Origin: a bacterium
GTDB lineage: Bacteria > UBP14 > UBA6098
Direction: 5' to 3'
Assembly (NCBI GenBank): GCA_023145965.1
Contig: JAGLDC010000007.1
Coordinates: 5,574 to 69,573, forward strand
Length of the DNA: 64,000 nt
Positions 30,699 to 50,151 of the stretch are shown piece by piece. Within the stretch, counting starts at the first letter, position 1, and the number at the start of each line of letters is the position of its first letter. The position numbers and the translations under genes were made by a program. Under the pieces are notes generated by a model. The model saw only the letters and a program-made list of their open reading frames with translations, had not been told where the DNA came from and did not search any database.

Positions 30699-30846
30699 TT
30701 AAACTTGACTTTTTGCAAATAATGTTTTAATTAATAAGCTTGTTTGAAGTCGTTATTAGTATGGGAAATGGAAAATATTGTTAAGTATAAGTTTGAATAG
30801 AAAGAATTTTATTTTTAATCCGATACTCCCGAGGAAGGGGGCATTA

Positions 30847-33800: not shown

Positions 33801-34464
33801 AATGGCTAAAGGGATAGTCGATGATCCGGTTATCGATTGGAACATAAACATCGATATAGATGGCAGTCCCATCGAACTGGCATATTCGACTCACGCCGAA
33901 AGCGGAATCGATGCGGCAGATATTGTAATGCCGCCTGCGCCGCCATCGGGTGCCTTCAGCCCATGTTTCGTTGACGAATCTGGCTATCGTTACTTGCGCG
34001 AGGTAAGGCCGGATGGTGTATGGAATATCTCGGCGCCATATGGCTCTATCATTAGCTGGAACGCAAAGGCGCTTCCTTCGGTTGAACTTGAGATTGTTAC
34101 CGATTTTGGGACGTTTGATATGCACAAGGTTGAAAGCATAGAATTCCTTGGGACAGCGAAAGTTGTTACAAAGGGCGTTCTTCCGACCGAGTTTACTCTT
34201 GGTCAGAATGTTCCAAATCCATTCAATGCTACATCTACGGTGCCGTTCAGCGTTCCGGTGGATTCAAGAGTGTCCATTAAGATATACGACATCAATGGCC
34301 ACACGATTTCGACCCTCGTCGAGAGCTATGTCGAGGTTGGAAGCCATCGTGTTGTTTGGGATGGTTTGGACGATCTCGGACGATCTGTTCCTTGTGGAAT
34401 TTACCTTTGTAGGATGGAAGCGGGGAGCTTTGCCGAGACAAGGCGAATGCTTCTAGTGAAATAG
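30847..34464 (+). CDS. Giant secreted surface protein (1205 aa) with a T9SS C-terminal sorting domain
   Basis: Signal peptide MEFNARITSVAIVCVLLLGSGVLFAQ. Aromatic/Asp-rich beta-sandwich-like repeats. C-terminus QNVPNPFNATSTVPFSVPVDSRVSIKIYDINGHTISTLVE..HRVVWDGLDDLGRSVPCGIYLCRMEAG matches the type-A T9SS CTD. Confidence 0.75.
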   Translation: MEFNARITSVAIVCVLLLGSGVLFAQPTEPLCADLVTTGYGLIGDTLEGDLVLSGFVKGHSVSLEVMPMCVSPTRQYRFFRTPLGASVPDLQTDWMPMAYTNMDGGGDSEVFKYYAAVTDGDTVTYSNPDEDPAMDLWLMHDWYRPDRIEGISTYYYPSPTRIRINWYKGTDSASGVYKYYIYRAPSGLGYTLEYIDPTETPIDSVLDDGRAWYDWSDYEVTPDECYWYVIVPMDKAGWIRRDGNDIFRRCAAVSGFGFPPCAQLQPLDRYHVGGGVTIRVNLDACPGDPDEVVQYRFRKYGVFIDSVSGDPDMYIMDETDWTDTPFYFFSTMECSTYTFSAQARYLGGTTSPWSHLIPTYPLTTNDPTPPGCPDEMFAHSYGEDGIYVHFEQDPGDDCGSGILGYHLFRFPADSISDHLPPDSSDIADYVLWEYYVNEEGIYTFQDDGPTDPVIDLIDNVTYYYVVCPYDSAGWTNWLDCGDLQIDTATVDKGVAAPMANRLPAYACDGEIYVEFVDTTRCDATEVEIQWSAEPEFGGATFVGVGPIPLHGDTAIGGFFDFTNHDDGICTNWDTLQVNISGLYETQWFFRARFYDIHSNVSEWSNISITRVDNTPPTTTSIINVQSFSDSVNTVDILLNWDESDFNDADGIGIDSVKVYRSAMAGDLGTVIATVSKFDNKFVDYDPVPTNNWHDNVYRVVPYDYCGHMNTEGGQGCFAALGQHPPAVPRIDTVLVSHYLDSFTIVWSDTGISPLTTKYVLRHGGTESWLWIGDTIIAPNTHLGTVPSHRYTFPIEELFGGPRHYFMMYALDGESPANQSGWSEVFAFDLPEALTVTDTIHIRAGWNFISLPVMPANNEANVIFPGGLDYYEWNPTTSIYDPITVMQPGKAYWVLMSSTADYPITGIPVVRVEETEIGPGWWSIGTPYDSTVAMLGSGFTWDGTGWARAYGYDGETPYYTTTHLNGGEAYWLLLSGTGDFYSEAGMAKGIVDDPVIDWNINIDIDGSPIELAYSTHAESGIDAADIVMPPAPPSGAFSPCFVDESGYRYLREVRPDGVWNISAPYGSIISWNAKALPSVELEIVTDFGTFDMHKVESIEFLGTAKVVTKGVLPTEFTLGQNVPNPFNATSTVPFSVPVDSRVSIKIYDINGHTISTLVESYVEVGSHRVVWDGLDDLGRSVPCGIYLCRMEAGSFAETRRMLLVK

Positions 34465-34490: not shown

Positions 34491-37400
34491 ATGATAAAAA
34501 TAAACATAAAGGATAAGGAGCGAGCCTTGAGAGTAAAGACTATGCCTATTATACTCGGTATTCTGGCTCTCGGGCTTTTTGGAAGCCTGTTAGCGCAATC
34601 AGCGCCTGTAGTTGAGCCGGAGCCGGCATATACTGCGGGACATGTCAACCCTTTGCTGTGGTCCGAACCTACAAGCTATAGTGTTACAATTTCAGCTTGG
34701 GAGATTTGGGTTGATACAGCATCTACCGGATTTCCTGATTGGCCGGATTCGGCCTATGAGGAGCTTTTGGGACCAGATAGAATCTCTATCGGCCCGATAC
34801 CGGTGACAGATGCTGCTGATTTCGGTTCTACCTACGGAAGCGAATATGCTTATCCGATCGGTAGCGGTGTTTATGGCGATTCCGACGATCCTCTTACTTC
34901 AGGATTGCGGTATTGTTATAAAGTGCGTTATCGTTGGTACACACCGCCTTCAACTTACGGGTTCTCCGATTGGTCTGAGACACATTGTAGTGTTCAGGAT
35001 GCCGCACCACCTACTGTCGAAATTGATTCTTTACCGGATTGGTGGAATACCGATGAGGTATCGATTCATTATATAGCCAATGATGCCCTCGTTGGTGAAG
35101 TCGATAGTGTGGTATTATATTACAGAATGCCGCCTTCGACCGATTGGATTAGGGTGTTTGCAGAAGCACCGCCACCACCTGGTTACGACGACTATATGGA
35201 ATTTGATATTACAGGAACCGGCGATGGTGAATACGAGTTTTTCATCGGCGCATGGGATGCCTTGGGCAATGGAACCATTCCACTGGGAACGCTTCATGCC
35301 CCAATGGCTGACACAAGGGTTGATGATACTGATCCGACAAGTGCCATTATAGAAACGGAAGATTTACCGCTTTATTATACAGGTTGGCCCGAAGGAATTA
35401 ATCTATTTTTCTCAGCCTCTGATTCATATAGCGGTTTAACAGCAGTCTATCTTGATACCGATTACGGCGATACTCCGCCGTTACCTTTCGATAGTCTATT
35501 TTTCCCGGCTGTGGAAAGTGTCACGCGCGATACCTTCGTATTTTCACGCACCGAGAATGGCGAGTGGAACATTCGTGCTAGAGCTGTCGATTTGGCCGGT
35601 AATCATGAATCAGAAACGACCTGGGATTGGACTTTTTATGTCGATACTCAGGAGCCTGAGTTTACTTCGACAACGGTTATAGACTCGACAACGGTTTCCC
35701 ATCGCTATGATGTTCCTGCAATGCATGGCTGGACAAACTCTCGGGCCGTCAAAGTAACGCCCGAAAGCGCTATCGACCCATTGGTTGATGGTTATGCCAG
35801 CGGCTTGGATACCGTTTCGGTTGCCTCGAATTCGGCATTCACCGAGGATTATATGGCTTTTGTGGCAGGAACACCGCCCTATATTTGGATTACTTCGGAT
35901 GACGACGGCGCAAAGGAAGCATATGTCCATCTCAAGGACAGAGCTACTAATATCAGCGAGTCGAGGTTTGGGGTAATCGAACTCGATACCGAGGTTCCGG
36001 TTCTTTCGGCATGCACACTTTGGAACCATGTAACGCCGGATACCTACACCGACACAACGGTTTCGCTCACTGTCGATGTTACCGCTAATCTCGATCCTTA
36101 TTACGGCTCGGCCAGCGGAATATACTTCGCGCAGAATGCTTCCAATCTTAATTCCATTGATACTGACGATTGGCAGGCGGTAGATGGCGATTATACATTT
36201 ACCTTCGATGGCTTCTCATCGGGCGAGTGGATGACGCTTTATGTTGTAGTTCGCGATAGTGCTGGTAACGTTAGCGAAGCTGCGATAGATAGCATAAGGT
36301 ATATTCATGGAAATAAGTGGGTCGAAATATTCAATATTCGCGATATCGACGGCCCCGATGTTACAGGAAGATACACCGATACAACCGAAATATCTATTGA
36401 GATAGCATACGGTAATGGAATAGATACATTATTGGTTTGGGATGGAAGCTCCATGTTGGGATTACCCGATACTGTTTTCCCTGTGGACGATCCTACCGGT
36501 GATTCGGATACGATAACCATAATTGGCAAACTTGAAAGGACAGACGGTTGGCATACATTGTCCGTTCGCGGAAAGACCGATTATGATATTATCCTCACAG
36601 ATCCGGATACTGCTTCGATAGAGCTTGATATTCAGCATCCGACGGTTCCAGATTTTCTCGTGTTAGACCTTACGATACACACAGAACCTTCAGGTCCTGC
36701 AGATGTTGCCGATACAGGTTGGACGAACGATGCAGATGTTAAAGGCATGTTCACTGGCAGCTACGACACAGGTGGCGAATCCAGTGGAACCGGCCTTTAT
36801 AGGTATAAGGTATCCATCGATACTCTAGTTCTCGGCACTGATGCATTCCCGGGGACTTATCAAGTTGACTTTGCGCTTCCAGTCGCTGATGGCCCTAGTG
36901 ATGTTATCGGTGATGTTCAGGATTCCAGCGGGAATTGGGCCTCTGAAGATGCCGACCCGATTTTCAACATTAAACTCGATACACATATTCCGACTATAGA
37001 CTCGATCCAGCTTTTAGATGCTACAAGTCTTTCACCGGATTATACCGACGATCCAAGTATCGTTGTTAAGATTTTCGGCGATGATGATCCATACACGCCG
37101 GCTTATGCATCGATTTTCGAGGATGGAACGGATTATCCAAATATCGTCCGCTCGATACGCCGTTCATTCAGTTCGGGGACATTAAGTTATATGCTTACAG
37201 ATACGCTCACAGGCGGTATTAAGACGGTTTATGTTGCTCTTATGGATAGAGCTGGGAATATCTCGGCGATTTCTTCGGCCACAATCGTATATAATAAGGA
37301 AATCGTTCTCGACATGTCGCTTTACGACTGCGATAGCGAACCAGAGAATAATGAATGCACGAATGACCCAACTGTTGGTGTGCATTTGTTTGCTTATGGA

Positions 37401-39278
37401 ACTCCGGCTGCAGCTTATATTCTTTCCGAGACACCGGGCGGTTTGCCCGAACCTGACGACCCGCGTTGGATAGACTATCCCGAGAGCGGTGATACTTTAT
37501 TTACCATGGTATTGGATGCCACCGAAGGCGAAAAAGTTATTTATGGATGGCTTCTTTCCGAGAGCTATATAGTCAGTGAGATGGACGAAGACACTATCTA
37601 TCTTGACATGACAGCACCGGAACAGAATGAGGGGTTCTTCGTATGGGATACCACTTCGGGAGATAACTTCCCCACCATATTTAAAGCGGCTATGGGCTGG
37701 TCGAACGAGAGTTATATATTTGCGCAGGTGCCTTTCTCCTATGATGAGGGCTGTGGAACCGATAGTATAAAGTTCTCTGGTGGTATCGACCTTGAGCTCT
37801 GGAGAGACATCGACCATGTTATTGATATCGAGGAACATAGTATTTCATTGGACTTCAGAACGGATAGTCTTCCATTGGTTATCGACACAGACTCCGAGGG
37901 TAGAAAGCAGATAGTTTCGCGTCTTCGCGACTCCGCAGGTAATTGGGGCAATGTTTTCGATCCATTGAGTCAGATAACCATACACGGCGGTTACGATGTT
38001 ACCGCACCTGATTTCGATTTTCTCGATGTTTTCAGTGAAGAGGTTACGGATAGCGTTACTTCGGTGCTTCCGAACTCTCTTCCAATAAAATTCATGGACG
38101 ACCCCGCACCGGGCTTTCTCTGGAAAGTTTGCTGGCAGATCGACTCCGATCCAACCAGGATAAGTTGCACGACTTACGATTCAACCTGGGATACGCCTGC
38201 CGATAGTATTTTCTATGCGGCTTTCCCGGGCGATTTAACAAGTGGTCTTGTTCCCGATCAGCATTACGATCTCAGTATAGTAGTGATCGATTCGGCGGGT
38301 AATCCAAGCGATCTTAAAACAGCGGATCTATTAATAATACCGGATTCAATCGAGTTCGCTTTCGAGGTTGTCGATACTAATGATCTCGAAGATAGCGATT
38401 ACTGTGGCGAAGTAACTGTCGCCACGCATGTTATGATGGATAATCCTCCGGATTATATGAGATTCGGCGAAAGCGCAAGCGGTTTAGGTAGCTGGATGGA
38501 TTATTCCGAATATGGGGAGTTCACGTTTAGCTCCAGCTTGAACCAGATGAAATATGTCTATGCTCAGATTCGTTATGGAACACAGGAATCAAAGATTGCG
38601 GTAGATTCAATCATTCTCGATACTCAGAATCCAAGCGTTTCTAATATCGAAGCCTTCGATATATCGACTGGCGATAGATATTATTCGGACGATGTGGAAA
38701 TTGGATTTAAGGCCTATGGTGCCAGCGATCCTAATCCGGGTATTGTGGGTGCTATGCTCATTGCTGAGGATGCAGATTTTACACTGAATGTTCAGAAGTG
38801 TGAACTCGATCTTACTGATACAACTTGCACTTATACTGCTTCAGAACTTGCAGATATAGATGATGATGCCTCAGCTTCCGGTGAAATTCGACAGGATGCT
38901 AGAGTATTTTGGGTGAAGTTGCTCGACCGCGCCGAGAACCCGGCTTCGATTAAAATGCCCGCTATTGTTATAGATTTAGATGAAGAGCTTGTGACCAACT
39001 TCCCAAATCCTTTCGATCCGACGGAAGAACCCACTATTGTTAGGGTCAAGGGGATTTCGATAGGTGGATCGGTAGAGGTTAGTATCTATGATAATTATGG
39101 TAACTTGGTATGGAATACGACAGTCTCCGCTCTCGGTGGAAGTAAAACAGTTGATGTTTTGTGGAACGGCAAGAACGGAAAGGGTGATGTTGTTGCCGGA
39201 GGAGTTTATGTGGCAATTGTAGAGGTCGAAGGAGAAATCATAAAACGCAAAATAGCTGTATGGAAGGGGGGTGAGTAG
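34491..39278 (+). CDS. Giant secreted surface protein (1595 aa) with a T9SS C-terminal sorting (FlgD-Ig-like) domain
   Basis: N-terminal signal (MIKINIKDKERALRVKTMPIILGILALGLFGSLLAQS). Many Ig/cadherin-like Asp/Thr-rich segments. C-terminus TNFPNPFDPTEEPTIVRVKGISIGGSVEVSIYDNYGNLVWNTTV..VLWNGKNGKGDVVAGGVYVAIVEVEG fits the CTD pattern. Confidence 0.75.
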   Translation: MIKINIKDKERALRVKTMPIILGILALGLFGSLLAQSAPVVEPEPAYTAGHVNPLLWSEPTSYSVTISAWEIWVDTASTGFPDWPDSAYEELLGPDRISIGPIPVTDAADFGSTYGSEYAYPIGSGVYGDSDDPLTSGLRYCYKVRYRWYTPPSTYGFSDWSETHCSVQDAAPPTVEIDSLPDWWNTDEVSIHYIANDALVGEVDSVVLYYRMPPSTDWIRVFAEAPPPPGYDDYMEFDITGTGDGEYEFFIGAWDALGNGTIPLGTLHAPMADTRVDDTDPTSAIIETEDLPLYYTGWPEGINLFFSASDSYSGLTAVYLDTDYGDTPPLPFDSLFFPAVESVTRDTFVFSRTENGEWNIRARAVDLAGNHESETTWDWTFYVDTQEPEFTSTTVIDSTTVSHRYDVPAMHGWTNSRAVKVTPESAIDPLVDGYASGLDTVSVASNSAFTEDYMAFVAGTPPYIWITSDDDGAKEAYVHLKDRATNISESRFGVIELDTEVPVLSACTLWNHVTPDTYTDTTVSLTVDVTANLDPYYGSASGIYFAQNASNLNSIDTDDWQAVDGDYTFTFDGFSSGEWMTLYVVVRDSAGNVSEAAIDSIRYIHGNKWVEIFNIRDIDGPDVTGRYTDTTEISIEIAYGNGIDTLLVWDGSSMLGLPDTVFPVDDPTGDSDTITIIGKLERTDGWHTLSVRGKTDYDIILTDPDTASIELDIQHPTVPDFLVLDLTIHTEPSGPADVADTGWTNDADVKGMFTGSYDTGGESSGTGLYRYKVSIDTLVLGTDAFPGTYQVDFALPVADGPSDVIGDVQDSSGNWASEDADPIFNIKLDTHIPTIDSIQLLDATSLSPDYTDDPSIVVKIFGDDDPYTPAYASIFEDGTDYPNIVRSIRRSFSSGTLSYMLTDTLTGGIKTVYVALMDRAGNISAISSATIVYNKEIVLDMSLYDCDSEPENNECTNDPTVGVHLFAYGTPAAAYILSETPGGLPEPDDPRWIDYPESGDTLFTMVLDATEGEKVIYGWLLSESYIVSEMDEDTIYLDMTAPEQNEGFFVWDTTSGDNFPTIFKAAMGWSNESYIFAQVPFSYDEGCGTDSIKFSGGIDLELWRDIDHVIDIEEHSISLDFRTDSLPLVIDTDSEGRKQIVSRLRDSAGNWGNVFDPLSQITIHGGYDVTAPDFDFLDVFSEEVTDSVTSVLPNSLPIKFMDDPAPGFLWKVCWQIDSDPTRISCTTYDSTWDTPADSIFYAAFPGDLTSGLVPDQHYDLSIVVIDSAGNPSDLKTADLLIIPDSIEFAFEVVDTNDLEDSDYCGEVTVATHVMMDNPPDYMRFGESASGLGSWMDYSEYGEFTFSSSLNQMKYVYAQIRYGTQESKIAVDSIILDTQNPSVSNIEAFDISTGDRYYSDDVEIGFKAYGASDPNPGIVGAMLIAEDADFTLNVQKCELDLTDTTCTYTASELADIDDDASASGEIRQDARVFWVKLLDRAENPASIKMPAIVIDLDEELVTNFPNPFDPTEEPTIVRVKGISIGGSVEVSIYDNYGNLVWNTTVSALGGSKTVDVLWNGKNGKGDVVAGGVYVAIVEVEGEIIKRKIAVWKGGE

Positions 39279-39280
39279 TC

Positions 39281-41095
39281 ATGAGTAGAAAATTTAAACT
39301 CGACTATCTCTGGATTATCCCGCTTTTCGCATTGGTTTCTTTCTCAGCTTTCGCTCAGGATGGCAGTGCCGGTCAAGCCGGGGAGCTTCTCCGTAGTGGA
39401 CTCGATGCAAGGAGTTTCTCTATGGGCAGAGCATATACTGTAATGCCCACAGGGGGCGATGCCCTCGTTTGGAATCCCGCCGGATTAGGAAAACTCGGAC
39501 GCTGGGAATTTCGTTTCATGCATGCTCAAGGCTATGTCGATAGCAGAACCGAATACGGAAGTTTCGCTATTCCTATCGGGGATCTCGGTGGTTTTGGTAT
39601 AGGCTTTGCCAATGAAGGAGTGACCTCTATAGAGGGCCGCGATGCTTTCAACCGTTCTACCGAAGAAATTTCTTGGGGAGAATCAGCCGCTCTGTTTGGT
39701 TGGGGTCGGGCGTTCATGCAGAACAAATTGTATGGTGGTCTTACCGCTAAATATGTGATGCAGAATATGGGAGACGAATCCGCAAATGGTTTTGGCGGCG
39801 TCGATGTCGGCTTTCTGTCTAAAGAATTCATGTTTAAATATCGCGTTGGTTTGACGCTTCAGAACCTCGGTGCAGCCGAGGTAGCTGGTGATGCCTATCC
39901 GATGACCGTTCGAGCTGGCGTCGGTTGGAGGGTTCTTAATGACCTTTATGTTACAGCCGATGGTGAGATGGTTTCTGGAAGGGATATTTCACCGCGAGTC
40001 GGCGCTGAATATCATCTTGGATGGGTAGCAATCCGCGCAGGATACGATATAATGAAGCCAGAGCTTACATTCGGACTTGGGTTGATGATCGACAATATAG
40101 CCGGTAGAGTTGCAGGGACTTATCCGAGATTAGATTATGCCGGAGGAGCATTAGCGCCGATAGGCAATAATTTTGCGAGAGTTTCTTTGACTCTTATGGG
40201 CGAGGAAATGAGCAAACTTGAGGATATTGAAGGTGATCCGTGTTCACAGTTATCGACCATTGAACCGCATATGAGTAAGCGCGGTTTTGTTGGAGCGAAA
40301 GCAAACTTGATCTACGGAGAATGCCGTTTCAAGGCTGAAGCTCTTGAAGCACCATTTGACATTGAACCTCGTTTTGGCGAAATTCATCCCTTCTTCAATT
40401 CTGCCTATTATGGTAAGTATGGTTCTAACTGGATGACCGAGATAGTTACGGATACTCTAGCTCAGACTGTATTTAGCCAGAAAACACATTATATGTATGC
40501 TGAAACGCGTATGGCTAAAGGCATAGATGAAGAAGCCAAAATCCTTCTTGATCAATTGATTTCGGCAGGTGGCGACAGCGCTCAATATGACCTTCGCCTT
40601 CAATATGATCTAGCTTTGATCAATGAAGAATTAGGCGAAACTGACGCGGCACTTAAGGACTACGAGTCTATCGCAGGGAAGAATGTAGATGACCCTGTTA
40701 AGGTTCTCGCTCTTTATCGTGCAGCAAATATACTCAGAGATAGAGATAAGACGAAGGCAATTAATTACCTAGAGACTTTAGTAAGTAAATATGGATCAGG
40801 CTTTTATGATGAAAGCGGTGAAAGAATCGGCTATCCCATGTTCCCCAAGTATATGGATAACTCGATTGCCGATGACGCTACGATCCTGTTAGCCGATATT
40901 ATTTTCTCCACTGCAAGCGGAGACCCAACCGTGCTTCGTAAAGCATTGGGACTTTATCTAGATGTTTTAATTTACTATCCGGATATGCAAGCTTCGATTC
41001 GTCGTGAAGCTGCGGAAAAAGCCGCTATATGTTTCGAAGAACTTGGAGATTCCGCGAGCGCAGCTTCGATGCGCTCGAAAGCGGGTGAGATTTAA
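39281..41095 (+). CDS. Putative outer-membrane beta-barrel (PorV/PorQ/PorP-type, FadL-like) fused to a C-terminal TPR-like domain
   Basis: Signal peptide ..LFALVSFSAFAQ. N-terminal motif DARSFSMGRAYTVMPTGGDALVWNPAGLG resembles the conserved start of T9SS-associated FadL-like barrels. Gly/aromatic-rich alternating strands follow to ~aa 330. The C-terminal 250 aa is helical repeats (TPR-like). Confidence 0.4.
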   Translation: MSRKFKLDYLWIIPLFALVSFSAFAQDGSAGQAGELLRSGLDARSFSMGRAYTVMPTGGDALVWNPAGLGKLGRWEFRFMHAQGYVDSRTEYGSFAIPIGDLGGFGIGFANEGVTSIEGRDAFNRSTEEISWGESAALFGWGRAFMQNKLYGGLTAKYVMQNMGDESANGFGGVDVGFLSKEFMFKYRVGLTLQNLGAAEVAGDAYPMTVRAGVGWRVLNDLYVTADGEMVSGRDISPRVGAEYHLGWVAIRAGYDIMKPELTFGLGLMIDNIAGRVAGTYPRLDYAGGALAPIGNNFARVSLTLMGEEMSKLEDIEGDPCSQLSTIEPHMSKRGFVGAKANLIYGECRFKAEALEAPFDIEPRFGEIHPFFNSAYYGKYGSNWMTEIVTDTLAQTVFSQKTHYMYAETRMAKGIDEEAKILLDQLISAGGDSAQYDLRLQYDLALINEELGETDAALKDYESIAGKNVDDPVKVLALYRAANILRDRDKTKAINYLETLVSKYGSGFYDESGERIGYPMFPKYMDNSIADDATILLADIIFSTASGDPTVLRKALGLYLDVLIYYPDMQASIRREAAEKAAICFEELGDSASAASMRSKAGEI

Positions 41096-41148
41096 TTATG
41101 AAAAACCAAAAAACCAATATAACTAATATGTTTCCCAAGGAGGAACAA

Positions 41149-42516
41149 ATGAAGTTTAACCGCATCGCAAACGGCGTGATGCTGGCAGTGCTTTTCGGAA
41201 TTATTGCAATTTGTGGAACCCTAGCGGCGCAAGCGCCAGCTGAACTGGATTCTATTTGGTTGCATACTTCCGATGCCAAGTGGGAGAAAACCGACGAAGG
41301 TTTTAATCTCACGATGTCATGGGAGCTTTACATCAAGAAAGCTCAAGATAAAAAAGGCTCTAAATTTTCAGGTGAATGGACTAAACTTTCTCCTGAGAAT
41401 GTAGAGTATACTTATCGCGTAGAAGTAGCTACTGATTCGGTTTTCAGCCAAATCGATAAGACTCAGGAAACTAATGAGGCTTCGCTAGTAATCCGCGATC
41501 TAAACTTTGACAAGTTTTATACTTCCAGAGTGCGTATTGTAGATCCTCCGGTCAATTATCGAGACGATTTCGCTGCCGGAACGATTTATAAACATGAAAA
41601 GGAAACCGGCGGAAAAAGCGAAGAACGAAAAGGCGTTATTGGTTTCTTACTTTTCGCCTTCGATAAGGGCGGATGGCAAACCTACGTTATTATTGCTCTC
41701 GCTTTATTGGGAATCCTGGGAGTTATGCCGATAACATGGTATAGACTTCGTTTGGCGAATATCTTCCCGCCGAATAAACCCGGGTTCTTATATTCGGCTT
41801 TGCCTTTCGATAGAACCGGGAAATGCGATCATCTATCGCCTAAGGGCAATGTCTTTGTTCGCGAAGTGGCAAAATATTGGTCGCGGGCTATGGCGGCTAT
41901 GGCATCCGATCCCTCGAATTGGGAGAGCACCGATGCTTTTATTAAAGCTACGGCTCAAGAACAAGAGGAAGTTAAGAAGCGCCGTTGGATCGAAGAGGGT
42001 CTTCCTGCGATAGAGCAGGCTATCGATGTCTGTAAAAATGGCGTTCCCGGTATCAAACTGAAGAAAAAACCGCTCGACTACCCGTTCCCGCGCGTTCTTC
42101 TCGCGGCGCTGGAAAATCAGAGGATTAACCGCAATAACTGGTGGGCGAGTCAGGAAATGGACAGAGCCGTTGAGAACACCTCGTTTAAAGAAATCGACGA
42201 TCTTAAGGGATGGAGTGTCACGGCATTCTGGGCTTTAGGTTCGGTTGAGCCTATGCTCGGTTTGTTCGGCACTGTTGAAGGAATTCAGAAGGCCTTCATG
42301 AAGATCCAGGAGCAATTAAAGGAAAATCCGGATGCGCCTATGGCCGATACGATTGAAAACCTCGCAGGAGGTATTCATCAAGCGCTTATTACCACGTTCT
42401 TCGGATTGCTCTTCGGTATTCCGTTCATGATGATTTACTATTATTATCGTGGAAAAGCTGATTGGGTTTTCTCCAAATGGGAGGAAATCGTTATCGACCT
42501 ATTAAACAGGGCCTAA
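41149..42516 (+). CDS. exbB: MotA/TolQ/ExbB-family proton channel protein with a ~200-aa N-terminal extracytoplasmic domain
   Basis: C-terminal part has three TM helices and the family motif MLGLFGTVEGIQKAF. Strong SD AAGGAGG lies 5 nt before the ATG at 41149. The N-terminal signal peptide is followed by a beta-rich domain with no recognisable family. Confidence 0.75.
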   Translation: MKFNRIANGVMLAVLFGIIAICGTLAAQAPAELDSIWLHTSDAKWEKTDEGFNLTMSWELYIKKAQDKKGSKFSGEWTKLSPENVEYTYRVEVATDSVFSQIDKTQETNEASLVIRDLNFDKFYTSRVRIVDPPVNYRDDFAAGTIYKHEKETGGKSEERKGVIGFLLFAFDKGGWQTYVIIALALLGILGVMPITWYRLRLANIFPPNKPGFLYSALPFDRTGKCDHLSPKGNVFVREVAKYWSRAMAAMASDPSNWESTDAFIKATAQEQEEVKKRRWIEEGLPAIEQAIDVCKNGVPGIKLKKKPLDYPFPRVLLAALENQRINRNNWWASQEMDRAVENTSFKEIDDLKGWSVTAFWALGSVEPMLGLFGTVEGIQKAFMKIQEQLKENPDAPMADTIENLAGGIHQALITTFFGLLFGIPFMMIYYYYRGKADWVFSKWEEIVIDLLNRA

Positions 42517-42532: not shown

Positions 42533-43102
42533 ATGCCCAGAAAACAAACAGAGGCTGTACCTTCTGCTGACTGGACCTCCTTAATCGATATCATCTTCCA
42601 GTTGCTCATCTTCTTCATGGTGACGCTGGCTATGGGGACAGTCGAGCAACAGGCTAGTGCCCAGATGGAAGGTGAAATGGATGAGAGCCTACCCGAGTTG
42701 CCCGGAATGAGTAATCTCGGTGAAGCCTTAGAAATCGGCCCCGGCGTGATACTTATTCATGCCGCTTACGATGAAGATAATGAAGTTGCAGGCGATATAG
42801 TAACATATCTCTTTACGAACGAGATCTCGAATATTGAAGAGGCGAAGAAAGATTCAACTCATAGCGCGGGTCCGTTCTCTTGGGATAAAGCCTATAAGAA
42901 GCTGCAAAAGCAGCTTACTTTTGCTCGTGATTACAACGAAAACCTTCCGAGGGTCGAGATGAGGGCTTTTAAGGGAACTCCTTACGGTAATGTTCTCGAT
43001 ATTATGAACCTATGCTATCACGACGAACCCGAAATGAGAATCGATCAGGTATATTTTAGGTTTGCTAGATTAGCTAGAGAGCAATTGGGAGGTGGAAGTT
43101 AG
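42533..43102 (+). CDS. exbD: ExbD/TolR-family biopolymer transport protein (paralogue 1)
   Basis: N-terminal DWTSLIDIIFQLLIFFMVT is the ExbD/TolR TM signature. SD AAGGAGGGG. Confidence 0.75.
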   Translation: MPRKQTEAVPSADWTSLIDIIFQLLIFFMVTLAMGTVEQQASAQMEGEMDESLPELPGMSNLGEALEIGPGVILIHAAYDEDNEVAGDIVTYLFTNEISNIEEAKKDSTHSAGPFSWDKAYKKLQKQLTFARDYNENLPRVEMRAFKGTPYGNVLDIMNLCYHDEPEMRIDQVYFRFARLAREQLGGGS

Positions 43103-43663
43103 ATGCAGAGAAGATATCTTAATCTTGAAAGCGCCGACTGGACGCCTTTAATCGATATTATCTTCCAGTTGATGATCTTCTTCCTGGTAACGATGAGCGT
43201 TCTTCCGGCGGTGAAATCTGCACCGCAGGTCGAGGGGAATATGTCGCTTCCGACACCGAATCAAGGAAGTTCTGAAGTCTCACACCTTATTCAGATATTG
43301 AAGGTCCCTTTCAAATCCGACATGTATGGTTATCTTGTTCTTGACGGCACTCCGCAATCTGCCGAATTCTATAAGGATGTTGACAGAAACCGTCAGTTTT
43401 TAGGTGACCAATATGCATTGGAAAGTGAAATTGTTCTTGGAACAAATATGGGGCTTTGGTTTAACGAGACAAGTCTTAAAGCGAAGTTTCAAGAAGCCTT
43501 CAGTCAACAGGATGTTAAGGTGATTATTAGAGCTGCCAGGAATGTCCCATATGGAGAGGTAGTAAAGGTTCATTCGATATTGTTTAATATCGGTATATCC
43601 AAGATCGCTTGGTTGGATGGCAAGATTGGAACTCTTAAGGCTGACATCAAGGAGGTGAGGTAG
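43103..43663 (+). CDS. exbD: ExbD/TolR-family biopolymer transport protein (paralogue 2)
   Basis: DWTPLIDIIFQLMIFFLVT. The start directly abuts the previous stop. SD GGAGGTGG. Confidence 0.75.
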   Translation: MQRRYLNLESADWTPLIDIIFQLMIFFLVTMSVLPAVKSAPQVEGNMSLPTPNQGSSEVSHLIQILKVPFKSDMYGYLVLDGTPQSAEFYKDVDRNRQFLGDQYALESEIVLGTNMGLWFNETSLKAKFQEAFSQQDVKVIIRAARNVPYGEVVKVHSILFNIGISKIAWLDGKIGTLKADIKEVR

Positions 43664-44237: not shown

Positions 44238-44270
44238 ACGCCCGTCTTGTGGCGGGCGTATTTTGACATT
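44238..44270 (+). terminator. Rho-independent terminator closing the cargo/Exb unit
   Basis: ACGCCCG (44238-44244) pairs with CGGGCGT (44253-44259), 8-nt loop, then ATTTTGACATTTTTT. Confidence 0.6.
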
Positions 44271-44311: not shown

Positions 44312-47300
44312 ATGAAGAAAATAATCGCAGGAATCCTTTTTATCGCGTTGATTTCTGTTGTTGGTCTTGTGGCTCAGGATGCAGAAGAGACTACGACAGT
44401 AGTTGATGAAAATATTTTAGCCGAAGAAGCGGATGCTACTGCTACAGAAGCAATCGAAGAAAATTCTCCGGTTAATCCGGCGATGAATCAAACCGGCATT
44501 GGAGGGATTAATGAGGCTTATGAAGCGGGTGCGGAGGCTCTCCAGGAAGGTAATTCAGATTCAGCGATCTCCTATTTCCAAAGCGCTGTTACTATCGCCG
44601 ATGTATTCCTTGGCGGTATTGTCGATCCTAGCGAAGAAGCTCAGGCTAAATATTTTAAAGGTCTTGCGCTTTATTATTGGGGGAAATTGGCAAAAGATGA
44701 CGGTAAGCTCGACGAGGCTTCTGCGGAATTCGGAGAGGCAATTAGCGCTTTTACAGCGATAGAGAAACTCGGGCGTTTTTATCTCGATAGTAAATATCGA
44801 AGAGCACTGTGTTCTTATCGTCAGTACCAAAATGCTAAGGTAGAAAATTCGCAGATTCGTAAGCTTGGTCAGTCATACGGCGATCTTCGAGATTTTCTCG
44901 AAGACCCTGCTCTTCAAGAGGCCAAGGATGAAATGGTCTCTGAGATCGAGAGCGGGAATTATTTTTCAGCATTATGCCTATTAAGACGCGGGCAAATCAA
45001 GACTTTCGATCCCTCTGAGTATAAAGCAGCTAAAAACGATCTTATTACAGCAGCAGGTTATTTCGCGGAGTTGGTAGATGCCAAAAACCAGCAAATAGCT
45101 ATTGTATCGAAATTAATGGAAGGGCTTACACATTATTACATAGCCAGATTATATATGCAGGTTACCCCGGAAAACTGGGAAGAGGTGGCTCTTTCTAATA
45201 AAGAGAGAGATGCGGTCATTATGGAGGAACTAGAAACAGCTGATACGAGGTTGAAGGCCGCAAAGTCCTCAGTGGGAGCATTTGCTACCGCAGTGCCTTA
45301 TATCGATTTCGCTATACTCTATAATAAAATTGCTCGAGGTGCCGCTGGTGATGCTTCAAAGCTTCGCGAGGCTTTAGAAACCCTTTCAAGCCAATCAGCT
45401 TCTGGGATATGGTCAAAGGAAAAAGACATACTTGCAGCAGATGCACAATTGCTGCGCTATTTTTCAGGGGAAGCGAATGCCGGTGCGGCCGTTAACGGAT
45501 GGAGTGGTTTAACGGGGAAAGATAAGATTGCAAATTACTGGATAGGTTGGGTTAAATTCATTGAGGCAATTGAAGAACCAAATAACTATCCCCAGTCCTC
45601 AGCTCAATTTAATAATTTCTTATCTGGTGGTAGTGGGTCAACGCGTGAAGCTATCATGCGTGCCGATGCAAAATTTAGAGATGCTGAATGTATATTCTGG
45701 GATGCTACTCTTAAAGAGCTTGCCCCTCTTCTTCAAGAAGCCAAAGGTACATACGAATCCCTTATTTCAAGCAGTGGAGCTTATTTCCGCTATCTTCCAG
45801 AAGAAATCCTCAAGCAAGCAGAAGTTAGGATTCAGATCATTGAAGTTCAACAGAGAATGGCAAGTGGAACCAGTGATATTAACCGCGTGATTACGAACCT
45901 TAAAATGCAAGGTCTTAATCTACCAGATGATGCGGCAGCTTATCTCAATTTTGGCCAATACTTCCTAGAAAAGGCAAACCGAGAAGCTGGCGACAAGCGT
46001 ATCCGCGATGTGGGTTTAGCTATAGGTCTTTTTAATCATGTAGCACAGAATTCATCGGTTAAAGCCGGTTTATTGCAGGAAGCTAAGTTCCTCAAAGGTG
46101 TGGGTTATGTTAAGAAGGCTACAGCTGTTCAGTCCCAAGAAGAAGCTTCTTCCGCAATGAAAGAAGCACAGCAGATTCTTAATGGCGTCACCGGTAAATT
46201 GGCAACAGAAGCGAAATATGCTATCGGTGTTGGTTTCTTCAATATAGAGGATAAGGCCAATGCGAGAACAGCGCTTAATAGCTTTAAAGATAACTATCTT
46301 CGTCCTGCTTTTGTATATGGAATGTCGAGCGATGGTTGTGTTACTAAAGGAACATATCTTCGCAAAGTTATTTCAAGCACAGACAGGTCGGACACATGGC
46401 ATATCAAAGCAACTTTGGCTTTTGATGGTCTCGAGTGTAAAAGCAGTATTCCCCCTCAATCAAACGATTTAAAATCTATCGGTTCACCGATTACATATGA
46501 GTCTCTTGCCGATGCAAAAGCACAAATGGATGAACTTAGATCTAAAGCTATTCTTATGTGGGAGAAAGTCAGCCCAGGAATGAATGCGTATCCGGCAGAT
46601 GATCTAATTCCAGATATGCCACCAAAAACGACTATTCTTGTTCAATTTCAAATTGTCGATCCTAATGATAAAACCATAAGCGGTGATCATTCTCTTATTA
46701 TAGACAACGATACTGAGATTGCTGAAAAAACGGATGGAAGCACCTATCGCGCAACTCTTAGCAGAGCGACACATAAGATAGAAGTTAACTTTAGAGGCTA
46801 TTATAAGTTTTCCGAGGAGCTTTCAATTACAGAAGAACAAACGGTTCCTTTAGTTCTAAAAAAGGCTGTTCGTTATGTCAGAAGAGGTTCTGATGTTGAT
46901 AATACAAATCAACCGATGGCCATCACTGCCGACGATGAGCAGTTATTCGTTGCAAGCAACGATAAGAAAACCATATTTAGACGCAATGCAGGGGAAAACC
47001 TCATTGGTTCGATTAATTATGAAGATATCGGTGTTTCAGCAGTTACCGGTTTAGCCCTCGATGGTGATTATTTGTTAGTGGTCGATGGTCGTTCGGGGCA
47101 AGTTAAGCTCACCACGGTCGATGGCTCAGATGTTCAGCCTATTGCGGTTAAGGGCGAATCTTATGGTGGTTCACCGTTAGTGAAGCCATTAAGCGCGATT
47201 TCTGTGGATGGCAGATATTATGTTGTCGATGCTGGCAATAGCCGTATTGTTGTTTTCGAGGGGATTAATTTCAGGAGTAAATTCGGAGTTGATCAGCTAG

Positions 47301-47674
47301 AGCATCCAATGGGAATTGCCTATAGAGCAAGTGATAGCAGGCTTTTAGTCACTGATATTGTCCAAGGGAAGGTGTTTGTTTTTTCAAAGACAGGAGACAT
47401 GATTGAGAGTTTCGCACTACCTAATCTAAAAAGCCCAAGTAGTATCTTCGTTGACCCTGATGGTTTTATCCTTATCTCGGACTATGTTAGCAATGCAATT
47501 TACAAATATACGAACAGATTCGAACCTCTCGGTGAAGTTACAGGTGAGATTGAGGCTCCGATTGCTATTGCGCAAATAGGGAGTGGTCCTGATGCAACAC
47601 TTTTTGTTGCATGTCAAGATGTTGTCGCAGTATTAAAGGGCGCATGGGACAATGCCTATACGCCGTCTAAGTAA
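44312..47674 (+). CDS. Large secreted TPR-like and NHL-repeat beta-propeller protein (1120 aa)
   Basis: Signal peptide MKKIIAGILFIALISVVGLVAQ. Long helical-repeat region. C-terminal NHL repeats (YVVDAGNSRIVVFEG; LLVTDIVQGKVFVFSKTGD; ILISDYVSNAIYKY). Confidence 0.6.
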   Translation: MKKIIAGILFIALISVVGLVAQDAEETTTVVDENILAEEADATATEAIEENSPVNPAMNQTGIGGINEAYEAGAEALQEGNSDSAISYFQSAVTIADVFLGGIVDPSEEAQAKYFKGLALYYWGKLAKDDGKLDEASAEFGEAISAFTAIEKLGRFYLDSKYRRALCSYRQYQNAKVENSQIRKLGQSYGDLRDFLEDPALQEAKDEMVSEIESGNYFSALCLLRRGQIKTFDPSEYKAAKNDLITAAGYFAELVDAKNQQIAIVSKLMEGLTHYYIARLYMQVTPENWEEVALSNKERDAVIMEELETADTRLKAAKSSVGAFATAVPYIDFAILYNKIARGAAGDASKLREALETLSSQSASGIWSKEKDILAADAQLLRYFSGEANAGAAVNGWSGLTGKDKIANYWIGWVKFIEAIEEPNNYPQSSAQFNNFLSGGSGSTREAIMRADAKFRDAECIFWDATLKELAPLLQEAKGTYESLISSSGAYFRYLPEEILKQAEVRIQIIEVQQRMASGTSDINRVITNLKMQGLNLPDDAAAYLNFGQYFLEKANREAGDKRIRDVGLAIGLFNHVAQNSSVKAGLLQEAKFLKGVGYVKKATAVQSQEEASSAMKEAQQILNGVTGKLATEAKYAIGVGFFNIEDKANARTALNSFKDNYLRPAFVYGMSSDGCVTKGTYLRKVISSTDRSDTWHIKATLAFDGLECKSSIPPQSNDLKSIGSPITYESLADAKAQMDELRSKAILMWEKVSPGMNAYPADDLIPDMPPKTTILVQFQIVDPNDKTISGDHSLIIDNDTEIAEKTDGSTYRATLSRATHKIEVNFRGYYKFSEELSITEEQTVPLVLKKAVRYVRRGSDVDNTNQPMAITADDEQLFVASNDKKTIFRRNAGENLIGSINYEDIGVSAVTGLALDGDYLLVVDGRSGQVKLTTVDGSDVQPIAVKGESYGGSPLVKPLSAISVDGRYYVVDAGNSRIVVFEGINFRSKFGVDQLEHPMGIAYRASDSRLLVTDIVQGKVFVFSKTGDMIESFALPNLKSPSSIFVDPDGFILISDYVSNAIYKYTNRFEPLGEVTGEIEAPIAIAQIGSGPDATLFVACQDVVAVLKGAWDNAYTPSK

Positions 47675-49241
47675 GACATTTATTAAAGTTGCTATCCTCT
47701 TTGGGGGGTTCTTATTTTGTAAGACCCCCCTTTTAGGTCAATATACTATCGACCTTACCGATGGGATATGCTCACAAAGGTTCCTTAATTCCGCCGAAAA
47801 TGTAGCTAAGTCATACGCAAATGATCTTGGTGCCCCCGAATTTCTATCGCAAATGATAGATTCCTCTTTTATTTCAGAAGATTATATATCGACAATTACA
47901 TACCTATATATAGCCCATTTTGCGGCTGGTGTGGATGAAACATATCTAGGAGATATTGCCTTCGTTATGGAGAGGGCTGGGTGTAACAGCCTTCCTGATT
48001 CATTATATAAGCTTCATATGGAAATAAACCCGCGCGACTATAAAGCTATCGGGAATTATGCTATTCTGTTAGCCAAAAACTGGAAATTTAAGGATGCGAG
48101 ACACATTATTGAAAGCAATTTGGGTAAATTTCGTGGTGAGAAAAAAAATAATTTATTAAGAGATCTAGGTCTTGTTAGAGCCCTGGAATATAATCGAAAC
48201 AAAAGTGAAAAAGCTTTATCAGCAGCTTTTGAGGCTTTTAGAAAAACTAGATATGGAACTCGAAAATCGCCTACAACTTTACAAAGAGGTGCTGTAGATT
48301 TTAAAGTTGCCCCTGTAGAAAGCTTCGAAAGCGGTAAATATAGATTCAACGCCTCACTCGAACATGCTGTAGGTTCAGATGGAATTATCCTTAATATTTG
48401 CGGAAGAATTGTTTTTGGAAGGGAAATGACTACGGACATTAAAGAGATCGATCAACTGGATGTTGCTGAGCTTTTAGGAGATATATATATTGCCCCGGGA
48501 GATTATTTACAAAGCGAAAGAGGTGCTTTAGAAGTTATAGGTGATCTTGGAGAATTCGCACCATTTTACGATGGTAGGATAGAACTCGAGATTGAAGTGG
48601 TGTTTCCTGATGGTTCCCGAAAGTATTTTAAAAATAACCCAGAACCCTTAACGCTCGATTCACCACATCTATCCCATATCACGAGCGAGTTATTCTATGG
48701 TAAAGGTGAATGGTCTTGCTCGTTAATGACAGAAATAGCCGATAGTGGAGCCGATTTGCCGGTATTATGGCGCGAATCAGCATATCTATCTACTGCATTA
48801 GAAGATTCAAGCAAATGGGTCGAGGCGATAAACTTCGTCGATTCACTTATGAATATAAAGTTGTATCCGAATCTCTGGGTTTATCGTGGCGCATTGGATT
48901 ACCTTTTAGGCAATTATGTTGCCGCAAGACATCCGTTGTTACAGGCTTTAGAGAATGATCCTAATAATTATTGGGCTATGCATAATCTTGGACTTGTAGA
49001 ATATGAGCTTGGCAATGAATCTCTAGCTGTCGAGCTTCTTATAAAAACCGCAGATATCAATCCTGAAATGAGTGCGAATTATATTGTAGCTGGAGCTATC
49101 TTAGAAGAAGATGGCAAATTAAGGGAAGCTTTAAAATACTACAAGAAGGGGCATTCCAAATCAGCTTTTCGCTCAGATGAAGTTCAAAGTTGGATCAAAA
49201 ATCTGGAGCAACAGCCGGGGATAATGGAGCCGATTGAATAG
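47652..49241 (+). CDS. TPR repeat protein with an N-terminal membrane anchor
   Basis: Hydrophobic N-terminus VAILFGGFLFC. C-terminal TPR units (YRGALDYLLGNYVAARHPLLQALENDPNNYWAMHNLGLVEYELGN..). 23-nt overlap with the upstream gene. Confidence 0.55.
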   Translation: MPIRRLSKTFIKVAILFGGFLFCKTPLLGQYTIDLTDGICSQRFLNSAENVAKSYANDLGAPEFLSQMIDSSFISEDYISTITYLYIAHFAAGVDETYLGDIAFVMERAGCNSLPDSLYKLHMEINPRDYKAIGNYAILLAKNWKFKDARHIIESNLGKFRGEKKNNLLRDLGLVRALEYNRNKSEKALSAAFEAFRKTRYGTRKSPTTLQRGAVDFKVAPVESFESGKYRFNASLEHAVGSDGIILNICGRIVFGREMTTDIKEIDQLDVAELLGDIYIAPGDYLQSERGALEVIGDLGEFAPFYDGRIELEIEVVFPDGSRKYFKNNPEPLTLDSPHLSHITSELFYGKGEWSCSLMTEIADSGADLPVLWRESAYLSTALEDSSKWVEAINFVDSLMNIKLYPNLWVYRGALDYLLGNYVAARHPLLQALENDPNNYWAMHNLGLVEYELGNESLAVELLIKTADINPEMSANYIVAGAILEEDGKLREALKYYKKGHSKSAFRSDEVQSWIKNLEQQPGIMEPIE

Positions 49242-49245
49242 AGAT

Positions 49246-50151
49246 TTAGTCTTCAACCACTGCGGGAGATATATATTTTTTAGGATCTGTCGCTTTTCCT
49301 GATATCCTGACTTCGTAATGAAGATGCACACCTGTAGTGTTACCTGAATTCCCGCAAGTCCCGATGATATCACCCCGTTTAACGGACTGTCCCGGTCTGA
49401 CTTTAATTTCACTTAAGTGTGCATATCGGGTTTCGTAATATGTATGATTTACCCTAACCATCTTGCCATAGCCGTGATACCAGCCTGTAAAACGAACTTT
49501 TCCATCTGCGGTAGCGCGCACCGGTGTCCCTTTTCTTGCACAAATATCAATGCCTTCATGTTGTTTCCAAATGCCAGTAAAGGGATCGAGCCTTTTCCCA
49601 AAGCCAGAACTGACGTAACCCTTCATAGGCCAAATAGAAGGAGTGCGGTCGAATAGCGACTTTCTTTTAGTGAAGTGTTCTTGTGTCTCAAGAATAGCCT
49701 TATTTTCGGTCTGAGCGGCCACTATAAGGGAATCGAGTTTTCTGTCTATTTCTTTAGCGCGAGCTAAGATAATCGGTTGATCGGGATCAAGGTAAGCGAG
49801 TTCTGGGCCACCTATGCCATAAGAAAAATTGGATTCATCGATGGGGGGGAGGTCGGCTACCTCGCGGACTTTCGAGTTAATTTCCCTCAGATTGCCGAAG
49901 AGAATTTCCAGAGAATCTGCTCTATGTTCCATTATCTTTATATTTTGCGCGAGTAACTTATTATTATTGGATTGCGCGCGAGATTGAACAAGCTCATTAA
50001 AATTAAACAGATTGAAGCCGAAAAATAGCACATTTACAAGTATGAGGGCTCCGACTGCGAAAAGAATCCATCGAAGTCGTGAGCCCTCAATTCTGATTTG
50101 CCTGATCTTCCCCGAATGTGGGGGGATTATTTGAAAACTATATTTTCCCAT
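49246..50151 (-). CDS. M23 family peptidase (LytM/EnvC-like, N-terminal TM plus coiled coil)
   Basis: HEGIDICARKGTPVRATADGKV..GNTTGVHLHYEV zinc motifs. Convergent with the TPR gene, 4-nt gap. Confidence 0.85.
   Translation of the reverse strand: MGKYSFQIIPPHSGKIRQIRIEGSRLRWILFAVGALILVNVLFFGFNLFNFNELVQSRAQSNNNKLLAQNIKIMEHRADSLEILFGNLREINSKVREVADLPPIDESNFSYGIGGPELAYLDPDQPIILARAKEIDRKLDSLIVAAQTENKAILETQEHFTKRKSLFDRTPSIWPMKGYVSSGFGKRLDPFTGIWKQHEGIDICARKGTPVRATADGKVRFTGWYHGYGKMVRVNHTYYETRYAHLSEIKVRPGQSVKRGDIIGTCGNSGNTTGVHLHYEVRISGKATDPKKYISPAVVED

Follow-up and report, generated by a model that had tools for sequence, protein, structure and literature searches.

We analysed a 64,000-nucleotide (nt) stretch of DNA, hereafter the window, from a bacterium of the GTDB lineage UBP14; UBA6098 (assembly GCA_023145965.1, contig JAGLDC010000007.1, positions 5,574 to 69,573 of the forward strand). 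Within it lies a cluster of eight genes, G1 to G8, followed by a possible accessory gene, G9 (Table 1). The fourth gene, G4, encodes an unusually long homologue of the TolQ/ExbB family of proton-channel subunits, the partner ExbD/TolR-type genes G5 and G6 lie directly downstream, and the remaining members encode two giant surface proteins (G1 and G2), a PorV-like barrel fused to tetratricopeptide repeats (TPR; G3), a lipoprotein (G7) and a large secreted protein with an NHL propeller (G8). A preliminary description based on sequence reading had noted in G4 a signal peptide, a beta-rich domain and then a channel core of three transmembrane (TM) helices, and all of these appear, in that order, in an AlphaFold2 (AF2) model of the protein built with 28 homologues (predicted local distance difference test, pLDDT, 78); the four peptide strings that it quoted for G4 are likewise all present in the translation.

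Table 1 Genes of the cluster, with the domains and translation signal of G4. Coordinates are those of the window; aa, amino acids.
Feature	Coordinates	Strand	Basis or remark
G1, giant surface protein, ~1228 aa (start approximate), with a C-terminal domain like type A of the type IX secretion system (T9SS)	30778..34464	+	
G2, giant surface protein rich in immunoglobulin-like (Ig) domains, 1595 aa, borderline T9SS-like C-terminal domain	34491..39278	+	
G3, PorV-like barrel (N-terminal ~300 aa) and CpoB-like TPR (C-terminal ~300 aa)	39281..41095	+	
Shine-Dalgarno sequence of G4, AAGGAGG	41137..41143	+	Read in the sequence; motif and spacing kept in six related loci
G4, long TolQ/ExbB-class motor subunit, 455 aa	41149..42516	+	PF01618, homologues, Foldseek, TolQ profile
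G4 predicted signal peptide, aa 1-27	41149..41229	+	K2/R5, hydrophobic core, ...LAA↓QA; separate helix aa 3-24 in model
G4 FN3-like beta-sandwich, aa 30-140 (modelled strands aa 35-139)	41236..41568	+	AF2 model
G4 flexible linker, aa 141-160	41569..41628	+	pLDDT <50 over aa 140-157; length and sequence variable in alignment
G4 interfacial helix (aa 163-173) and TM1 (aa 175-199)	41635..41745	+	AF2 secondary structure
G4 enlarged cytoplasmic helical domain, aa 200-354	41746..42210	+	AF2 helices, dense invariant columns
G4 TM2-loop-TM3 channel core, aa 355-455, GLFGTV.GI and ALITT motifs	42211..42513	+	TolQ alignment, PF01618
G5, ExbD/TolR paralogue 1, 189 aa, TM motif LIDIIFQLL	42533..43102	+	PF02472 37.2 bits; 26/26 loci
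G6, ExbD/TolR paralogue 2, 186 aa, same TM Asp motif	43103..43663	+	PF02472 52.9 bits; syntenic
G7, conserved lipoprotein, 188 aa	43664..44230	+	Cys after signal peptide invariant
G8, secreted 1120-aa protein, helical/TPR N-terminal two-thirds and C-terminal six-bladed NHL propeller	44312..47674	+	Pfam NHL; syntenic
G9, TPR protein, 529 aa, possible accessory part	47652..49241	+	TPR families

The open reading frame (ORF) of G4 (41098..42516, plus strand) specifies 472 aa from its first ATG and 455 aa from the ATG at 41149, and several lines of evidence indicate that the latter is the true start, as had been proposed from its Shine-Dalgarno sequence. This motif ends 5 nt before the ATG and is conserved; G4 homologues begin at the equivalent position in alignments; the NCBI gene call is likewise 455 aa long (P0001, 100% identity); and in one related locus (L007) an in-frame TAA lies just 5' of the equivalent start codon, so that an upstream start is impossible there. 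The conserved Shine-Dalgarno sequence, the stop in L007 and the homologue starts together rule out the ATG at 41098, and the 'KEEQ' string that seems conserved 5' of the start, where a few homologues have been called too long, simply reflects translation of the Shine-Dalgarno sequence.

The C-terminal part of G4 identifies it as a member of the TolQ/ExbB class. Pfam MotA_ExbB (PF01618) scores 68.7 bits (cutoff 22.9, E 5e-19), with the match confined to aa 333-462 of the 472-aa ORF, and Foldseek aligns the core with TolQ and ExbB chains from cryo-electron microscopy (cryo-EM) and crystal structures at probability 1.0 (TM-score 0.49-0.57, normalised to the target). Far weaker matches to ZorA come next, and no GldL or PorL chain appears among the top 50 Foldseek matches in the PDB. 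The G4 family profile also matches E. coli TolQ (E 9e-12), and the family-invariant motifs GLFGTV.GI in TM2 (aa 355-392 in the model) and ALITT in TM3 (aa 398-454) align to TolQ GLFGTVWGI and ALIAT, so that the conserved pore-lining threonines of TM2 and TM3 (T145 and T178 in TolQ) are kept in G4. G4 scores 58.5 bits on TIGR02796 (tolQ, cutoff 221) and 36.2 bits on TIGR02797 (exbB, cutoff 206), far under both equivalog cutoffs, and is therefore best classed as a TolQ/ExbB-type motor subunit that is an orthologue of neither.

G4 thus shares with TolQ of the Tol-Pal system and ExbB of the Ton system of E. coli (PDB 8odt, 5sv0, 9ddo) the PF01618 domain, the three-TM fold with an outward N-terminus, the pore motifs of TM2 and TM3, and adjacent ExbD/TolR partner genes with a TM aspartate (...LIDIIFQL... 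in both G5 and G6). Unlike these proteins, it is twice as long, with a predicted cleavable signal peptide, a folded periplasmic domain and a highly conserved cytoplasmic domain enlarged by ~60 residues; V or Q occupies the position of TolQ E173 and ExbB E176; and the cluster encodes no TonB/TolA, TolB or Pal. The cytoplasmic domain, which we estimate from the model and the TolQ alignment to be ~60 aa longer than that of the 230-aa TolQ, shows the strongest conservation within the protein (mean pairwise distance 0.46, compared with 1.27 for the N-terminal domain) and carries the motifs FPPNKPGFLY, NGVPGIKL and LAALEN.R.N.N.WW.SQEMDRA, which suggests a cytoplasmic partner or a regulatory role. 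The R/K-rich segment WYRLRLANIFPPNKPGF that follows TM1 agrees with the positive-inside rule. At the other end of the protein, the N-terminal helix has the features of a Sec signal peptide, with small residues followed by a near-invariant Ala27 and, usually in homologues, a glutamine, and cleavage is predicted. Whether it is cleaved or retained as an anchor, the beta-domain lies on the periplasmic side, which fits the N-out topology of TolQ and ExbB.

The N-terminal domain is present and folded, as first described, although its size of ~200 aa had been overestimated: the mature periplasmic extension measures ~145 aa, of which ~105 aa are folded and the rest is linker (~20 aa disordered), and the ~60 further residues belong to the cytoplasmic domain. 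Structure prediction of this region alone, which the preliminary description had suggested, gave a confident beta-sandwich (pLDDT 84.6 overall and 82-95 over most of the domain; predicted TM-score 0.75) with seven strands in the topology of fibronectin type III (FN3) domains, including the typical core Trp in strand B (W58, invariant) and Tyr in strand F (Y124, near-invariant). Two Asp-Ser pairs, D34-S35 and D96-S97, are invariant as well. Sequence comparisons point in the same direction, albeit weakly. Pfam fn3 (PF00041) reaches 16.1 bits on the domain in the window (cutoff 25) and is sub-threshold in 13 of 23 N-terminal domains (best E 0.0024), and since these scores lie under the threshold we refer to the domain as FN3-like. 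In the PDB, the domain profile matched only FN3-containing proteins at E<=10 (titin, E 0.006; DCC, 0.05). When it was compared with 1.84 billion representative sequences, high scores piled up on giant multi-FN3 proteins, which supports kinship with FN3, the same matches swamping the output and leaving it uninformative on further ExbB fusions. Taken together, these weak but consistent sequence signals and the structural model lead us to assign the domain with confidence to FN3-like beta-sandwiches. DUF2341 (PF10102), DUF3450 and other Pfam domains associated with ExbB were considered and rejected, none being detected in the 23 N-terminal domains at E<=10.

The FN3-like domain is conserved in the 57 homologue clusters described below, and in the closest pair of sequences its nonsynonymous divergence (dN) amounts to 0.15, against saturation at synonymous sites, which indicates that it is translated and under purifying selection. 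It evolves ~2.5 times faster than the core (mean distance 1.27 vs 0.51), a rate comparable to those of the surface and periplasmic components encoded in the cluster.

Protein searches retrieved 57 clusters of full-length or nearly full-length G4 homologues at 43-84% identity, mostly 445-468 aa long, and beyond these two weak matches to ordinary ExbB only. A scan of GTDB species yielded 22 loci, all from uncultured metagenome-assembled genomes (MAGs) labelled 'bacterium', UBP14 or Zixibacteria, the nearest being from UBP14_UBA6098 (82% identity). We judged gene order in 26 fetched loci, as far as each contig reaches, and found G1 to G8 in identical order and on the same strand in 26/26, down to 42% identity, with similar sizes across loci (G1 ~1200, G2 ~1550, G3 ~600, G7 ~185 and G8 ~1100 aa). 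G4 always lies directly 3' of the gene for the PorV-like barrel, which itself follows G1 and G2, so that the co-occurrence of N-extended ExbB with genes for (borderline) T9SS-type C-terminal domains, raised as a question in the preliminary description, holds for this family wherever the contigs reach. In the window, the genes of the cluster are 0-81 nt apart, with no gap at G5/G6 or G6/G7, and every one of them carries a GGAGG of its own. A search for sister systems with a short ExbB, conducted through the second ExbD paralogue and the weak outgroup matches of G4, returned the same family and one ordinary ExbB-ExbD pair only. These patterns support the eight-gene cluster as one functional unit, and suggest that G4 is probably part of an undescribed envelope-spanning machine of uncultured Zixibacteria and UBP14.

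The genes upstream of G4 connect the cluster to the outer membrane and cell surface. G1 matches FlgD_ig (29.8 bits, cutoff 27), and its C-terminal 120 aa score 24.6 bits on the model of the T9SS type-A sorting domain, TIGR04183 (cutoff 23), or 19.0 when the whole protein is scanned; G2 matches Big_13 (40.2 bits) and, weakly, CHU_C, its C-terminal 120 aa reaching 22.5 bits on TIGR04183 (cutoff 23). Both C-termini also match those of PorU and PorZ. For G3, PorV_fam (NCBIfam NF033709) scores 79.6 bits, under the cutoff of 90; the G3 family profile aligns with F. johnsoniae PorV (6h3i_F, E 8.7e-9) over residues 2-239 and 322-399, nearly its full length, and some homologues are named 'PorV/PorQ family protein' by NCBI (PGAP). 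The best PDB match of the TPR half is CpoB (E 9e-4). Elsewhere in the window, a 441-aa protein (62014-63339, minus strand) combines an N-acetylmuramoyl-L-alanine amidase domain, Golvesin_C and Por_Secre_tail (32.7 bits, cutoff 27), and given this clear cargo in the same genome T9SS-type sorting is plausibly in use.

Downstream of G4, the two ExbD paralogues are unusually long (~186-189 vs ~140 aa), and the Pfam alignment spans place an insert after the TM segment. The start codon of G6 abuts the stop codon of G5, with its own GGAGG at the junction; an apparent ExbD1-ExbD2 fusion in four loci (L013, L019-L021) was rejected, as in-frame stops separate the two genes. The cysteine that follows the signal peptide of G7 is invariant (15/15 aligned sequences), which makes the protein a lipoprotein; its profile has no match in the PDB or Pfam. 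G7 carries an invariant PPP.P.F motif and a W-x-Y-T-R-x-G segment whose alignment with the E. coli TonB C-terminal domain is not significant. Comparison by hhalign with an E. coli TonB sequence recovered only a 23-residue W-x-Y motif at a probability of 2%. We therefore do not assign G7 to TonB or TolA, given a lipobox cysteine instead of a TM anchor and TonB_C in 1/15 members (E 0.14), although it could be a lipid-anchored, TonB-C-like adaptor. The G8 profile matches NHL propellers (Pizza, TRIM71, PknD) with E down to 5e-43 at positions ~820-1040, preceded by ~700 helical/TPR residues. G9 has strong tblastn matches only in L005-L010, and weak or absent ones in other loci. Family scans and profile searches found no TonB/TolA-type membrane protein, OmpA-like Pal or TolB-type protein among G1-G9.

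The predicted Sec signal peptides of G2, G3, G4 and G8 all end in Ala-Gln (LLAQS, FAQDG, AAQAP and VAQDA), as do those of most G4 homologues, and in this they resemble the 'Q-rule' reported as specific to Bacteroidetes rather than general in the Fibrobacteres-Chlorobi-Bacteroidetes (FCB) group (PMC5837995).

Several known systems share elements with this cluster, and decorated ExbB-like subunits in general are already known. Vibrio TtpC, of the TonB2 system, is one such A subunit with an N-terminal appendage. The HasB-associated long ExbB of Serratia marcescens and Alphaproteobacteria has a periplasmic N-terminal extension of ~50 aa on average, Ala/Pro-rich, predicted to be disordered and invisible in cryo-EM, which in Serratia contacts the force transducer HasB (PMC9008036). 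Like G4 it starts with a signal peptide followed by a periplasmic extension, but that of G4 is a folded FN3-like domain of ~105 aa plus linker, not visibly Ala/Pro-rich, and the cluster encodes no TonB/HasB paralogue. N-terminal appendages such as DUF2341 and DUF3450, described as 'extraordinarily large periplasmic domains', occur on non-flagellar A subunits as a general, uncharacterised phenomenon (PMC12505986); G4 shares with these the large periplasmic N-terminal domain on a TolQ/ExbB-like protein and differs in its FN3-like fold and in its context of a PorV-like barrel, giant proteins with T9SS-type C-terminal domains and no TonB in the cluster. The N-terminal domain is thus unlike the described extensions of ExbB, and the caveat of the preliminary description that it might be a known, common one is not borne out by comparison with the disordered, DUF2341 and DUF3450 types.

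The nearest systems in architecture are the Agl-Glt core complex of Myxococcus (AglR/Q/S and GltD/E/G/C, with TonB-like GltG; PMC3169522) and FSU_2396-2403 of Fibrobacter succinogenes (OmpA, TPR proteins and ExbB-ExbD-ExbD-TonB; PMC6851124), each of which combines one TolQ-like and two TolR-like proteins with TPR proteins and outer-membrane parts. Systems of the Agl-Glt class are envelope-spanning apparatuses driven by the proton motive force and acting on surface proteins, as we propose for the G4 cluster. In Agl-Glt a TM TonB-like protein, GltG, binds AglR, and none such is found in the G4 cluster; moreover, AglR lacks a periplasmic domain, and the outer-membrane part of the G4 cluster is PorV-like. 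No similarity in sequence between G3, G7 or G8 and Glt proteins was seen, though no search was aimed at one. With the T9SS and Bacteroidetes gliding machinery (GldLM/PorLM, the PorV shuttle and SprB/RemA cargo) the cluster shares a predicted 5:2-type motor, a probable PorV-family barrel and giant, adhesin-like proteins with borderline Ig-like C-terminal sorting domains. Its motor, however, is of the TolQ/ExbB-ExbD class and not GldL/GldM, with ExbD-family partners; its PorV-like barrel is fused to TPR; and it has no SprA/Sov, PorU or GldK/N. From all these nearest systems, then, the G4 cluster differs in having no TM transducer, an FN3-like domain on the presumed pentamer-forming subunit and a PorV-like barrel fused to TPR. 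Text searches of the literature found no description of an FN3-ExbB fusion or of the G1-G8 cluster.

We propose that G4 would be the pentamer-forming (A) subunit of a dedicated proton-driven motor of the TolQ/ExbB 5:2 type, with G5 and G6 presumably sitting as a heterodimer inside its pore. Once the signal peptide is removed, every G4 protomer would display its FN3-like domain in the periplasm, hung by the flexible linker of ~20 residues on the helix before TM1, and this motor would be one part of an eight-gene envelope-spanning apparatus together with G7, G8, G3, G1 and G2. Because the cluster spans the envelope yet encodes no TonB/TolA adaptor, the ring of five FN3-like domains could serve as the built-in periplasmic coupling and docking module of the motor, binding a partner in the periplasm, be it G7, G8 or the G3 TPR domain, and thereby tying proton flow across the inner membrane to the barrel and to the secretion, anchoring or movement of its giant clients G1 and G2 at the outer membrane. 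The contact of the Serratia ExbB extension with HasB offers a precedent. We give this reading somewhat less than an even chance. It also revises the earlier suggestion that the N-terminal domain could be a docking module for barrel or cargo, which is partly supported: the genetic association is strict, holding in all 26 loci, but a domain of ~105 aa on a tether of ~20 aa should reach only a few nm, too little to make it likely that barrel or cargo is touched directly. If the FN3-like domain docks, periplasmic targets, i.e. the G3 TPR domain, G7 or G8, are likelier, and action inside the motor on the periplasmic domains of the ExbD proteins is just as conceivable.

Mirror-tree co-variation provides a lead as to the partner. 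The FN3-like domain co-varied best with G7, the partial r being 0.50 when the core is controlled for and 0.23 when the mean of all other parts is; for the TM segments of the ExbD proteins and TM2/3 of G4, the first control gives 0.30-0.43 and the second 0.22-0.32. These margins are small and confounded by shared phylogeny, so the ranking of G7 is a lead only. Several further considerations weigh against docking by the FN3 ring. The co-variation is weak, the ExbD and G4 TM segments scoring similarly to G7, and FN3 domains are often mere spacers. The genome may hold a gene for a TonB/TolA-like adaptor outside the cluster, or the faint TonB-C-like motif of G7 may mark a conventional but lipid-anchored transducer. 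The C-termini of G1 and G2 are only borderline as T9SS-type domains, the PorV_fam score of G3 falls under the NCBIfam cutoff, and all members of the family come from uncultured organisms.

The same data bear on an alternative in which the five FN3-like domains form a collar inside the motor, around the periplasmic domains of ExbD1 and ExbD2, and control assembly, plugging, activation or the register of the heterodimer. The tether of ~20 aa would hold the FN3-like domain close to the membrane, at the level where the periplasmic domains of the ExbD proteins begin to protrude; the insert after the TM segment of G5 and G6 leaves room for an extra contact; and co-variation with the ExbD TM segments and G4 TM2/3 equals that with any external partner, although this signal is weak and confounded by phylogeny for the collar as well. 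The much higher evolutionary rate of the domain, compared with the ExbD TM and core regions that it would have to fit, speaks against this reading, and a collar leaves unexplained how a motor without TonB/TolA reaches outer-membrane parts that are always co-encoded with it. We regard this alternative as rather unlikely, if credible.

The likeness of single components to Tol-Pal raises another alternative, namely that the cluster is the lineage's own Tol-Pal-like system for envelope maintenance or cell division, with the FN3-like domain as a lineage-specific spacer and the giant proteins as mere neighbours. TolQ is indeed the best match of G4 in both sequence and structure, CpoB is the closest relative of the G3 TPR part, the TPR and beta-propeller united in G8 are the kinds of domain found in CpoB and TolB (cf. 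PorE, PMC12204202), and M23 peptidase genes flank the cluster, the downstream one being syntenic in several loci. Nonetheless, the tolQ score of G4 is far from its cutoff (58.5 vs 221 bits on TIGR02796), and a Pal-type OmpA-like lipoprotein, TolA and a TolB-type propeller are all missing from the cluster. Furthermore, G1, G2 and the PorV-like barrel occur in fixed order at every locus, and as this linkage is kept down to 42% identity a chance neighbourhood is hard to accept. A Tol-Pal-like function for the whole cluster thus seems improbable to us.

An ordinary Ton system for TonB-dependent nutrient uptake, in which G4 would be a decorated ExbB, is very improbable. The gene order ExbB-ExbD-ExbD-(small protein) does resemble the ExbB-ExbD-ExbD-TonB of Fibrobacter succinogenes FSU_2400-2403 (PMC6851124), and TonB-dependent receptor genes lie a few kb 3' of the cluster in two distant loci. 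Such receptor genes are, however, not conserved neighbours, and in the window none was found next to G1-G8; TonB_C has no significant match in the lipoprotein G7, and the exbB score of G4 (36.2 bits on TIGR02797) is far below the cutoff of 206. Finally, an annotation artefact, in which the start of G4 is internal and the N-terminal domain does not exist, found no supporting point and can practically be dismissed: the conserved Shine-Dalgarno sequence 5 nt upstream and the homologue starts place the start at 41149, as first described, and the domain is conserved at the protein level in 57 homologue clusters, has a dN far under the saturated synonymous divergence (dS) and is predicted to fold with confidence.

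Ion-driven 5:2 motors (MotAB, ExbBD, TolQR, GldLM, AglRQS, ZorAB) are now viewed as a general route by which inner-membrane energy is conveyed to other sites of the cell; the way in which force leaves the motor is not the same in all of them and, in the case of Ton and Tol, continues to be debated. A pentamer of the TolQ/ExbB class with a folded periplasmic domain of its own, and without a TonB/TolA gene alongside, would represent another mode of coupling, and the cluster offers a compact, co-encoded set of candidate partners for it. The strict linkage also ties Tol/Ton-type motors to outer-membrane parts of the T9SS type, to our reading of the literature searches for the first time, and hints at how little-known phyla of the FCB group place or move very large surface proteins. 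As all members are uncultured, progress rests on heterologous expression and structural work.

Distant homologues of G3 (P0229 and P0230; PorV-like/UPF0164 with TPR) were also found in two Elusimicrobia MAGs (L027:1-14657 and L029:906-6380). There they adjoin a FliG-like protein (FliG_M, FliG_C), a MotA of 254-258 aa and a MotB with an OmpA domain, and in one of the two loci (L027) a 6438-aa FN3-rich protein lies directly 5' of the G3 homologue. To our knowledge, Elusimicrobia generally lack flagella. A PorV-like/TPR module thus appears to be paired here with a different type of 5:2 motor, which provides independent support for such links, and motors combined with a PorV-like/TPR barrel may form a wider, undescribed class. 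We tentatively extend our proposal to an undescribed envelope-spanning, proton-driven machine of Zixibacteria, UBP14 and their relatives, in which the G4 pentamer would use its five FN3-like domains as the mechanical output, in place of a transducer of the TonB/TolA/GldM type. This output would act on a TPR/NHL scaffold and a PorV-TPR barrel, and through them the giant proteins G1 and G2, with their T9SS-type C-terminal domains, would be secreted, anchored or moved, the Elusimicrobia loci representing a second, independently motorised version. In this full form the proposal is doubtful, its chances lying clearly below even.

Additional features were noted in and around the cluster. A promoter scan of the cluster returned counts at background level. 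A terminator scan found a single clear stem-loop within it, a GC-rich hairpin in the 81-nt gap between G7 and G8 (44238-44259; ACGCCCGCCACAAGACGGGCGT on the minus strand; the plus-strand form is weaker), which could act as an attenuator or RNA-stability element. The M23 peptidase genes lie on both flanks of the cluster (29379-30698, plus strand, and 49246-50151, minus strand), the downstream one being syntenic in at least 6 related loci, including the distant L023 and L025, which hints at a link to cell-wall remodelling. Further 5' of the cluster, a gene for a secretion or pilus ATPase of the T2SSE family (23921-25114, plus strand) sits amid housekeeping genes.

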